DNA from: a virus
Taxonomy: Duplodnaviria; Caudoviricetes
Length of the DNA stretch: 64,000 nt
IMG/VR virus record: IMGVR_UViG_3300021400_001324
Location: 1-64,000 of that record
Reading direction: 5' to 3' (one strand)
Under the pieces are notes generated by a model. It was not told the DNA's origin. It made no database searches and was given only the letters and a program-made list of their open reading frames with translations. Each line of letters begins with the position of its first letter. Positions within the stretch are counted from its first letter, which is position 1. Shown piece after piece: positions 34,810 through 58,922 of the stretch. The translations under genes were made by a program, and so were the position numbers.

Positions 34810-35104
34810 TCCTCCTCCTAGGATTCGAACCTAGTCTGTCGGTTTTCGTACTACACTTGCTTTTATACAAGCCAACTAACGTGAGTTGTTGTAGTCTGGA
34901 CTATTTCTTTATCCACATGGGATATTCCCTATATAGTCTCTACGCCATTTATCACAATCGTGAATTTAGTAAGCCGTCGCCAAAACTAAAGTCGCCTTTA
35001 GTGAGGTTTCCGTTTGTTAGGGGAATTATTCGATATACATTGCTGTATAAAGCTCCATTTTACCTTTAAGAGACCGTCTTGCTAACCAATTACAACAGAG
35101 GAGA
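34810..35104 (-). tRNA. Amber-suppressor tRNA(CUA), split by a group I intron (exons 35104-35069 and 34846-34810)
   Basis: Spliced cloverleaf: TCTCCTC TG TTGT AATTGGTTA GCAA G ACGGT CT-CTA-AA ACCGA CAGA CTAGG TTCGAAT CCTAG GAGGAGG A; no encoded CCA. Confidence 0.88.
34847..35068 (-). ncRNA. Group I intron, 222 nt, between anticodon U35 and A36
   Basis: IGS GGAG pairs with exon CTCT with a U.G at the splice site; P3 ATTCCCCTA/TAGGGAAT; P7 GAGACTA/TAGTCC; AAAGAAATAGTCCAGACTACAAC; P9 closure ACTACA/TGTAGT; terminal G at 34847. Confidence 0.88.
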
Positions 35105-57571: not shown

Positions 57572-57642
57572 GGCCCTGTAGTTTAGAAGCAGAACGCAAG
57601 ATTTTCATTCTTGAGAACACGGAGCGTTACCGTGCTGGGCTA
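57572..57642 (+). tRNA. tRNA-Glu(UUC), atypical T-loop AGCGTTA
   Basis: CAAGA TT-TTC-AT TCTTG; CACGG/CCGTG T-stem. Confidence 0.75.
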
Positions 57643-58040: not shown

Positions 58041-58766
58041 GATCTCGTAGCTCAGCTGGTTTTTAGAGCACCACACTTTGATTTAAGAGTGCTATGGCGA
58101 GAAATCCCATAGTAGAATCACCCAAATTCGGTGAAAATCCTTTTCTGAATAAATGGCACATGATGCAAACTGGTTATACCTTAAGGAGTGCCAGCACTAA
58201 CCAATAATGTGTAAGGACAATACCGAGCGAAAATAAGTTTAAATTTGTATGAATACATGTACGTAATACAAATGACCATTGCAACAGATAAGCACTAACA
58301 ACAATGGGGGTAGTGCAACTTATAATCGTGTAGAGACTGAACGGGTGATACCTAAGTTGAAATTGATATCCATATTAAGCATTGATAGTGATGCTGCCTC
58401 GAAAGGGTGAAACAAAGTGCAAATCTTTGAATATGAATCTTGCAAGAATTTCAATATGGTAAAGAGACAGTGAGGTTTAACCTCCACTAACTAATGTTAG
58501 ACTATAACAAATGCGATAGTATAGAGCTGTCACGGCTGTTCGGCTGATACAAACCGAATAATAAATGTGTAAAAGTTGATTTGTTTCAAACTATCGGTGA
58601 TATCTTATTTGATTATAGTAATATTAGTTAGTGCCAGACCACAACAAATGACCCTACCCAATGGGTGAATGTCAGGGTGGGAAGGAACATTCTCAATCAT
58701 TTGGCTATGGTAACATAGAGTGGTAGGTTAATGTGGGAGTCCTGGGTTCGAATCCCAGCGGGATCA
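58041..58766 (+). tRNA. tRNA-Lys(UUU) split by a group I intron (exons 58041-58078 and 58728-58766)
   Basis: Spliced anticodon arm CCACA CT-TTT-AA TGTGG; acceptor GATCTCG/CGGGATC; A73. Confidence 0.85.
58079..58727 (+). ncRNA. Group I intron, 649 nt, no ORF, with an insertion inside P7
   Basis: IGS TTAAGAGTG pairs with the 5' exon CACTT (U.G) and the 3' exon TTAA; P3 ATCACCC/GGGTGAT; GTAGAGACTG; P9 closure ACCAC/GTGGT; terminal G at 58727. Confidence 0.85.
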
Positions 58767-58922
58767 CTAAGCAGATTATCTGTATCGGGCACCGACCCTA
58801 AGGTACATACGGATACAGATGGTGAGTAATAGAGTTCGAGGATTGTTAGTGAAATAGACTTTGAAGCTGCAATACGTGCTGAACCATGAGCGGTCGGAAC
58901 GTCTCTATTAAATCTGTTTTTC

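Follow-up and report, generated by a model that had tools for sequence, protein, structure and literature searches.

We found that a group I intron in the tRNA-Lys(UUU) gene of a tailed phage carries a 162-nt insert inside the 3' strand of P7, the helix that is best conserved among group I ribozymes and that contains the guanosine-binding site. The insert folds into two hairpins, and the same two-hairpin module was found at the same position in ten other introns. We consider it probable, at roughly 70%, that the insert is a lineage-specific peripheral domain and cargo site tolerated by the ribozyme, which would remain active.

The intron lies in a 64,000-nt stretch of DNA (hereafter the window), positions 1 to 64,000 of the IMG/VR record IMGVR_UViG_3300021400_001324. 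The full record is a 77.8-kb viral sequence estimated to be 44% complete; it belongs to a tailed phage, and a portal protein is encoded. Long frames appear in the minus-strand genes only if TAG is translated as an amino acid, and a single gene may contain as many as 34 in-frame TAGs. An array of tRNA genes occupies the plus strand at 55.4-62.4 kb of the window. Here, a split tRNA-Lys(UUU) sits between tRNA-Met and tRNA-Leu, and its halves (58041-58078 and 58728-58766, plus strand) are 649 nt apart. The 5' exon contains the acceptor, an unusually long D-loop, the anticodon stem and C32, U33 and U34, and ends in CACUU. The product joined in silico at 58078/58728, on which the 3' exon was assigned, was accepted by ARAGORN as tRNA-Lys (ttt). 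The intron is located in the anticodon loop, between nucleotides 34 and 35, and both exons are 100% identical to those of the relative L024.

Several minor features of the tRNA genes were also recorded. The D-loop of the tRNA-Lys (58050-58069) is 4 bases longer than that of the relative L162 (AGCUGGUUUUUA vs AGUUGGUA), and the longer form is common to the window and L024. Positions 57572-57642 were called a tRNA by Rfam (45.8 bits) and are absent from the ARAGORN list. Upstream of the tRNA array in L024, positions 106-167 gave a sub-threshold match to the twister-P1 ribozyme (59.7 bits vs a gathering score of 67.2, E = 2e-11), for which the syntenic window position would be near 51.4 kb.

The initial annotation had placed a group I intron in this tRNA-Lys at 58079-58727, and the exon and intron ends, the core helices and the ARAGORN-valid spliced tRNA all agree with this assignment. 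The 649-nt element is preceded by U at -1, ends in the omega G (58727) and contains no ORF of 60 aa or more. The internal guide sequence GAGUG (58087-58091) is predicted to form P1 with the exon sequence CACUU (58074-58078), including the wobble pair U58078.G58087, and an identical CUU/GAG P1 is found in Leu, Lys and Arg relatives. A candidate P10 can form between UUAA (58083-58086) and the four bases with which the 3' exon begins. The P2 hairpin (CUAUGG/CCAUAG, 58092-58112) is kept in relatives. P3 is formed by AUCACCC (58117-58123) and GGGUGAU (58343-58349); among 34 relatives it reads UCUCC/GGAGA in 25 and UCACC/GGUGA in 9, with zero exceptions.

The P4-P5 region (58127-58227) consists of P4 (58127-58133/58221-58227) around P5 (58138-58142/58213-58217) and a P5 extension, which includes a conserved hairpin with an 11-nt loop (58194-58212). 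P6 (58228-58239/58317-58328, within 58228-58328) is an inverted repeat with a 77-nt extension. The stack of P4, P5 and P6 with A-rich J4/5 and J5/4 is present and kept in relatives; these P4-P6 pairings rest on sequence and conservation in relatives, and the covariation counts cover P3, P7 and the P9-closing helix. P8 (58350-58364/58447-58460, within 58350-58460) has a conserved stem and an extension whose inner part varies in relatives, and is followed by J8/7 (AAAGAGA, 58461-58467) in the canonical S element context. The P9 domain (58638-58724) is closed by ACCAC (58638-58642) and GUGGU (58720-58724) and contains a stem (58645-58651/58697-58703) and a GUAA-capped hairpin (58705-58718). In the wider family, the closing helix covaries (U-A 57, C-G 29, U.G 14), as in GACUAC/GUAGU vs GACCAC/GUGGU. 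The relatives used for covariation, more than 100 in total, came from IMG/VR and JGI contigs.

By its sequence features, the window element is a putatively self-splicing group I intron in a phage tRNA-Lys, and it appears to group with the IC3-like group I introns of tRNA anticodon loops, in a lineage from uncultivated phages. It resembles the IC3 tRNA introns (cyanobacterial and plastid tRNA-Leu(UAA), Azoarcus tRNA-Ile) in its R element, its S element once the insert is looped out, its predicted P2-P9, P9-closing helix, omega G and lack of an ORF. However, it differs from them in its phage tRNA-Lys(UUU) host, its 649 nt, its large P5, P6, P8 and P9 extensions and the two-helix module in the P7 3' strand. 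It is about three times larger than IC3 tRNA introns; a sister intron in the window has about 220-222 nt. With the tRNA-Leu(UAA) intron of cyanobacteria and plastids, which belongs to class Leu.3Ug (Williams 2020, bioRxiv 10.1101/2020.01.27.920355), it shares insertion after U34 and the CUU/GAG P1 with a U.G wobble.

The lineage is one to which Rfam Intron_gpI (RF00028) is blind. At the gathering threshold and at E up to 10, this model matched neither the window intron nor the sister intron nor their relatives. Since it also misses the sister intron and the uninterrupted intron of L024, the failure reflects the reach of the model and not the insert. A search of GenBank phages returned no match to the Lys intron. 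A 2014 review described all phage introns observed to date as lying in protein-coding genes (PMC3984707).

The 5' strand of P7 is a canonical R element (GAGACUG, 58333-58339) with A58334 bulged. The initial statement that it needs CAGUCC as its partner is supported by 119 relatives in which the terminal P7 pair covaries (A/U 69, G/C 15, U/A about 10, C/G 1). In the window, the 3' strand reads CAGU (58468-58471), then 162 nt (58472-58633), then CC (58634-58635): AAAGAGACAGU ends at 58471 and CCAGACCACAAC begins at 58634. Here, 58336-58339 are predicted to pair with 58468-58471, G58335 with C58634 and G58333 with C58635. Most relatives have an unbroken CAGUCC. As first reported, deletion of 58472-58633 recreates the motif of the sister intron, which is also that of most relatives and corresponds to a canonical S element; this motif, AAAGAAATAGTCCAGACTACAAC, has a single occurrence (34888-34910, minus strand), with a chance expectation of 0. 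The R element is intact, and the S element is intact only with 58472-58633 looped out. An alternative intact P7 3' strand, named at the outset as the finding that would speak against a split P7, does not exist, because no second CAGUC or CAGUCC is present within the intron.

The insert is predicted to fold into two arms. The first, P7.1, is a 13-nt hairpin, GAGGU-UUA-ACCUC (58472-58484). The second, P7.2, has 149 nt (58485-58633), a 14-bp base stem (58485-58498/58620-58633) and a first base that pairs with its last. The minimum free energy of the insert is -46.6 kcal/mol (z = -5.3), a stability that none of 200 shuffles reached. The initial description of an almost fully paired insert was accurate, and the stems listed in it are present (GAGGU/ACCUC plus the long hairpin). 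Its remaining details also hold: the insert follows a U and has G as its last base, and the apex GCUGUC (58526-58531) is complementary to GACAGU, one G.U pair included.

The P7.2 5' strand is similar to the hairpin in the P5 region (CACUAACCAAUAAUGUG, 58194-58212) that all subfamily members conserve, and the 3' strand of P7.2 is consequently complementary to 58194-58206 at 12 of 13 positions. This complementarity might reflect either an alternative pairing or the origin of the module.

In the predicted fold, zero unpaired bases lie at the CAGU/P7.1, P7.1/P7.2 and P7.2/CC boundaries. With no linker bases between them, the helices would form a perfect four-way junction, whose branch point lies between the U pairing with A58336 and the C pairing with G58335. 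By analogy with solved group I structures, we take G58335-C58634 to be the guanosine-binding pair, so that strand exchange would occur one phosphate away from it. It had been proposed that both helices leave from one backbone position beside this pair, which agrees with the linker-less boundaries. The position of the junction directly at the guanosine-binding pair, where any distortion of the backbone could be costly, counts against the reading of a tolerated domain. Using a nearest-neighbour model on a two-strand mini-construct, we found that the minimum free energy structure contains P7a, P7.1 and P7.2, and that forcing both lower-P7 G-C pairs costs +3.4 kcal/mol.

We propose that the four base pairs of upper P7, P7.1, P7.2 and the last two P7 pairs meet in this junction as follows. 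The upper and lower parts of P7 would form one stack, as they do in ordinary introns, and P7.1 would stack on P7.2, with both directed away from the core. The cost of +3.4 kcal/mol might be paid by tertiary contacts. Since P7 stacking would be kept and the two extra arms would point outward, the ribozyme would still splice and yield tRNA-Lys(UUU). In this model, P7.2 would serve as the cargo arm.

Two extra helices beside P7 are also found in the phage introns of subgroup IA, where the P7.1/P7.2 extension (T4 td, phage Twort orf142-I2) occupies the segment that joins the P7 5' strand to the P3 3' strand, so that neither strand of P7 is broken. In contrast, the helices in the window branch from within the P7 3' strand, at a point two pairs before it ends (58471/58634), with no sign of homology to the IA extension. 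Only AA (58340-58341) lies between the P7 5' strand and P3' in the window, and assignment to the IA extension was rejected on this ground.

To find further copies of the module, we searched viral and metagenomic contigs. In the viral contig L026, CAGU is followed at the same site by the identical 13-nt hairpin, then by a hairpin of 20 nt and finally by CC. A metagenome scan with the 20-nt junction sequence returned ten contigs, one of them identical to the contig of L026, and all ten read CAGU, GAGGUUUAACCUC, C...G and CC at the same bond. The module is hosted by introns of Lys, Leu(UAA) and Arg(UCU) tRNAs. The P7.2 lengths in the ten contigs are 20, 30, 67, 102, 124, 150, 210, 238, 249 and 564 nt, and the smallest insert, in L156, consists of 33 nt forming two plain hairpins. 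When folded separately, 11 of 11 inserts gave P7.1 and a P7.2 closed by its first and last base as the minimum free energy structure. The base of P7.2 is conserved (CACCAAC...GUUUGGUG) and covaries among the 11 introns, as in its pair 4 (C-G 6, A-U 2, U-A 1, U.G 1). All 11 module-bearing introns have the same P7.1 sequence; however, this hairpin formed part of the search pattern in its entirety, and its invariance is therefore not evidence of selection.

All seven module-bearing genes with both exons on the contig splice in silico to valid tRNAs (Lys(UUU) three, Leu(UAA) three, Arg(UCU) one), and all of their introns lie between nucleotides 34 and 35. The presence of the same module in at least ten related phage tRNA introns suggests a tolerated, heritable four-way junction rather than damage. 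A tolerated junction was one of three options raised in the initial annotation, and it is the one favoured by these comparative data, with exons intact wherever both could be read. The search for homologs with and without the insert that was suggested there gave the ten contigs with the module, beside a majority of relatives with unbroken CAGUCC. However, the module has possibly spread by recombination, and the 11 cases are accordingly not 11 independent tests of tolerance.

A viral scan for any interruption after CAGU, independent of P7.1, revealed no variant forms and returned only L026, plus L010. A viral scan for GGTGCCAGACCACAAC returned only L026, plus chance matches in unrelated GC-rich contigs, and the module is absent from GTDB genomes. 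The insert occurs once in the 77.8-kb record, which has just two introns of the lineage; a dispersed repeat or MITE is therefore unlikely, and this candidate was set aside. Point changes in the P7 3' strand were also observed, CAGCCC in L004 and L012 and CAGUAC in L010. The change in L010 alters the C of the presumed guanosine-binding pair, and its 3' flank is not a tRNA; L010 may be a decayed copy.

To characterize the cargo of P7.2, we compared the inserts with each other and with intron domains. In L162, which is syntenic with the window (flanks about 84% identical) and has the tRNA-Lys in common, the cargo consists of an intact 170-aa ORF that encodes NUMOD4 and HNH_3 domains (homing endonuclease) and is located wholly in the P7.2 loop between the strands of an 18-bp stem. 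At least one further intron of the lineage, L042, has a member of this HNH family upstream of its R element. A tblastn search with the L162 HNH protein found no gene remnant in any other cargo, which rules out that the window cargo is a decayed endonuclease gene. L158, L161 and L165 have in common a structured cargo of about 185-220 nt (84-94% identical; P7.2 of 210-249 nt) that matches no Rfam family and does not resemble the HNH gene. In others, the cargo appears to be an RNA cassette copied from a P9 domain: the L160 cargo aligns with the P9 region of the introns L020 and L010.

The window cargo starts at about 58497 and is 93.5% identical to that of L164, a different intron. Both align end to end with a stretch of the tRNA-Lys intron of L024 that starts at the CC of P7', crosses P9 and reaches the omega-G region, and the identity between the window cargo and the L024 P9 region is 89% over 126 nt. 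L024 is the closest relative found (flanks 88-96% identical), and its P7 is uninterrupted. The differences of the cargo from L024 are nearly all GC-to-AT transitions, several of which turn a three-way P9 junction into a continuous helix, where ACCACAA/CUAUGGU became ACUAUAA/UUAUAGU. In the outer stem, 5 of 5 substitutions between the window and L164 preserve pairing, one of them a double compensatory change and the others to or from G.U. To judge from these alignments, the inner part of the window insert is a paralogous, decayed copy of the intron 3' domain, which the initial annotation had not recognised. Recombination between paralogous introns, apparently a frequent event in the lineage, is the most likely source of this copy. 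The base of P7.2 resembles that of P9 (CAC.AAC...GUUUGG), and this likeness would permit exchange of the two sites by homologous recombination.

Modules have evidently been shuffled across the whole intron lineage. The window and L024 have core blocks that are 100% identical, including 58195-58236 and 58697-58772, split by unrelated inserts in P5, P6, P8 and P9. Identity of 100% in core blocks, compared with 88-96% in flanking genes, fits purifying selection on the core. In L029 (plus strand, about 12-300), we observed a tandem P3'-P8 duplication joined via AGAGAC of the S and R elements, where GGUAAAGAGAC runs directly into UGAACGGG. This is a direct example of unequal recombination within the lineage.

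The same history could be read as damage. The insert would then be a scar of recombination or duplication that breaks P7 in a decaying tRNA-Lys pseudogene, leaving the intron inactive or crippled, or splicing would need a protein helper. The cargo as a decayed duplicate of the intron 3' domain, with nearly all differences GC-to-AT, and the uninterrupted P7 of L024 would fit such a scar. Phage tRNAs are also dispensable, and as accessory genes they would allow an inactive intron to persist for some time. However, ten other introns, in tRNAs of three species, carry the module and have intact exons, and core blocks and exons are 100% conserved where flanks are 88-96% identical. Furthermore, the stem substitutions preserve pairing, and decay has given a better hairpin rather than random sequence. 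We therefore consider damage unlikely, though it has to be taken seriously.

The R and S elements and J8/7 show no co-varying change between introns with and without the module. Together with the exons, the core and the pairing-preserving substitutions, this constancy argues that the introns are kept in working order.

The four-way junction could also be a working part of the intron. Perfect four-way junctions exchange between stacking conformers, and two stacking isomers, or an alternative pairing of P7.2, could gate P7 and the guanosine-binding site, making their formation depend on some condition or on a bound factor, and hence gate the supply of tRNA. The apex GCUGUC, complementary to GACAGU, had led to the initial suggestion of a switch that sequesters P7, and the 12/13 complementarity of the P7.2 3' strand to 58194-58206 offers a second candidate pairing. 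But the complement to GACAGU is missing from 9 of the 10 other inserts and is full only in the window: that of L164 is weaker and lies elsewhere, and the homologous apex reads GCUGGC in both L164 and L024. In the consensus module, far less complementarity to the P5 hairpin is seen, and the range of cargo sizes, with 4 nt at one end and an ORF at the other, speaks against a specific sensor. Gating of this kind, including the proposed sequestration of P7, is thus improbable. A broader form, in which isomer exchange, or capture of the junction by the intron-encoded HNH protein or a host factor, switches P7 and the guanosine-binding site, seems to us a similarly slim prospect. If true, it would make the maturation of phage tRNA-Lys, tRNA-Leu and tRNA-Arg conditional and would provide a natural allosteric group I ribozyme.

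The initial annotation further considered a nested element that must be excised first. As a twintron, the insert would excise itself after U58471 and after G58633 before P7 forms. Its flanking U and terminal G, the homology of its 3' end to the intron 3' end including the omega-G region, and a 6-bp P1-like pairing GACAGU/GCUGUC with a terminal U.G, which the window allows, are compatible with such an element. However, the U and G ends are properties of the fixed flanks of the module, whose ends are identical in all versions, and the P1-like pairing is specific to the window. The L156 version amounts to 33 nt of plain hairpins, the window insert lacks P3, P4, P6, P7 and P8 of its own, and no known ribozyme family was matched when Rfam was run on the cargos. 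Use of the host core would require the very P7 that the insert blocks. Twintrons and twin-ribozyme introns likewise have structured RNA within a group I intron, but here the inner element is without a catalytic core and is as short as 33 nt in a relative. Self-excision of the insert is therefore very improbable, and the tolerated cargo site remains our preferred reading.

Known peripheral domains and homing endonuclease genes of group I introns are found on outer helices or joining strands, and the usual sites of homing-endonuclease ORFs are P1, P2, P6, P8 and P9. L162 resembles introns with homing endonuclease genes in peripheral hairpins in that its HNH gene lies in a hairpin loop whose stem joins the flanking parts of the intron; it differs in that the gene-bearing hairpin branches from the core helix P7. 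Homing-endonuclease ORFs have been described as lying in loops or overlapping core sequences (PMC3984707). Within the part of the literature covered, we found no report of a helix, junction or gene inside a P7 strand.

In the introns described here, a junction within a strand of P7 occurs naturally and repeatedly, and the modules range in size from 33 nt up to one that contains an entire endonuclease gene. Should these introns be active, the group I catalytic core would tolerate strand exchange one phosphate from the guanosine-binding pair. They would then also offer a test set for structural biology, in which one core is available without a junction, with a minimal one and with one that carries large cargo. 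They add to the picture of a large lineage of tRNA-gene introns in uncultivated phages that standard tools miss.

The sister group I intron is located at 34845-35064 of the window on the minus strand, in a tRNA at about 34810-35104. It splits this tRNA after U35, with a CUCU/GGAG P1, and the anticodon CUA (amber suppressor) arises only by ligation of the exons. A search of GenBank phages showed that it resembles introns of the crAss-like phage cr115_1 and of Lak phages.
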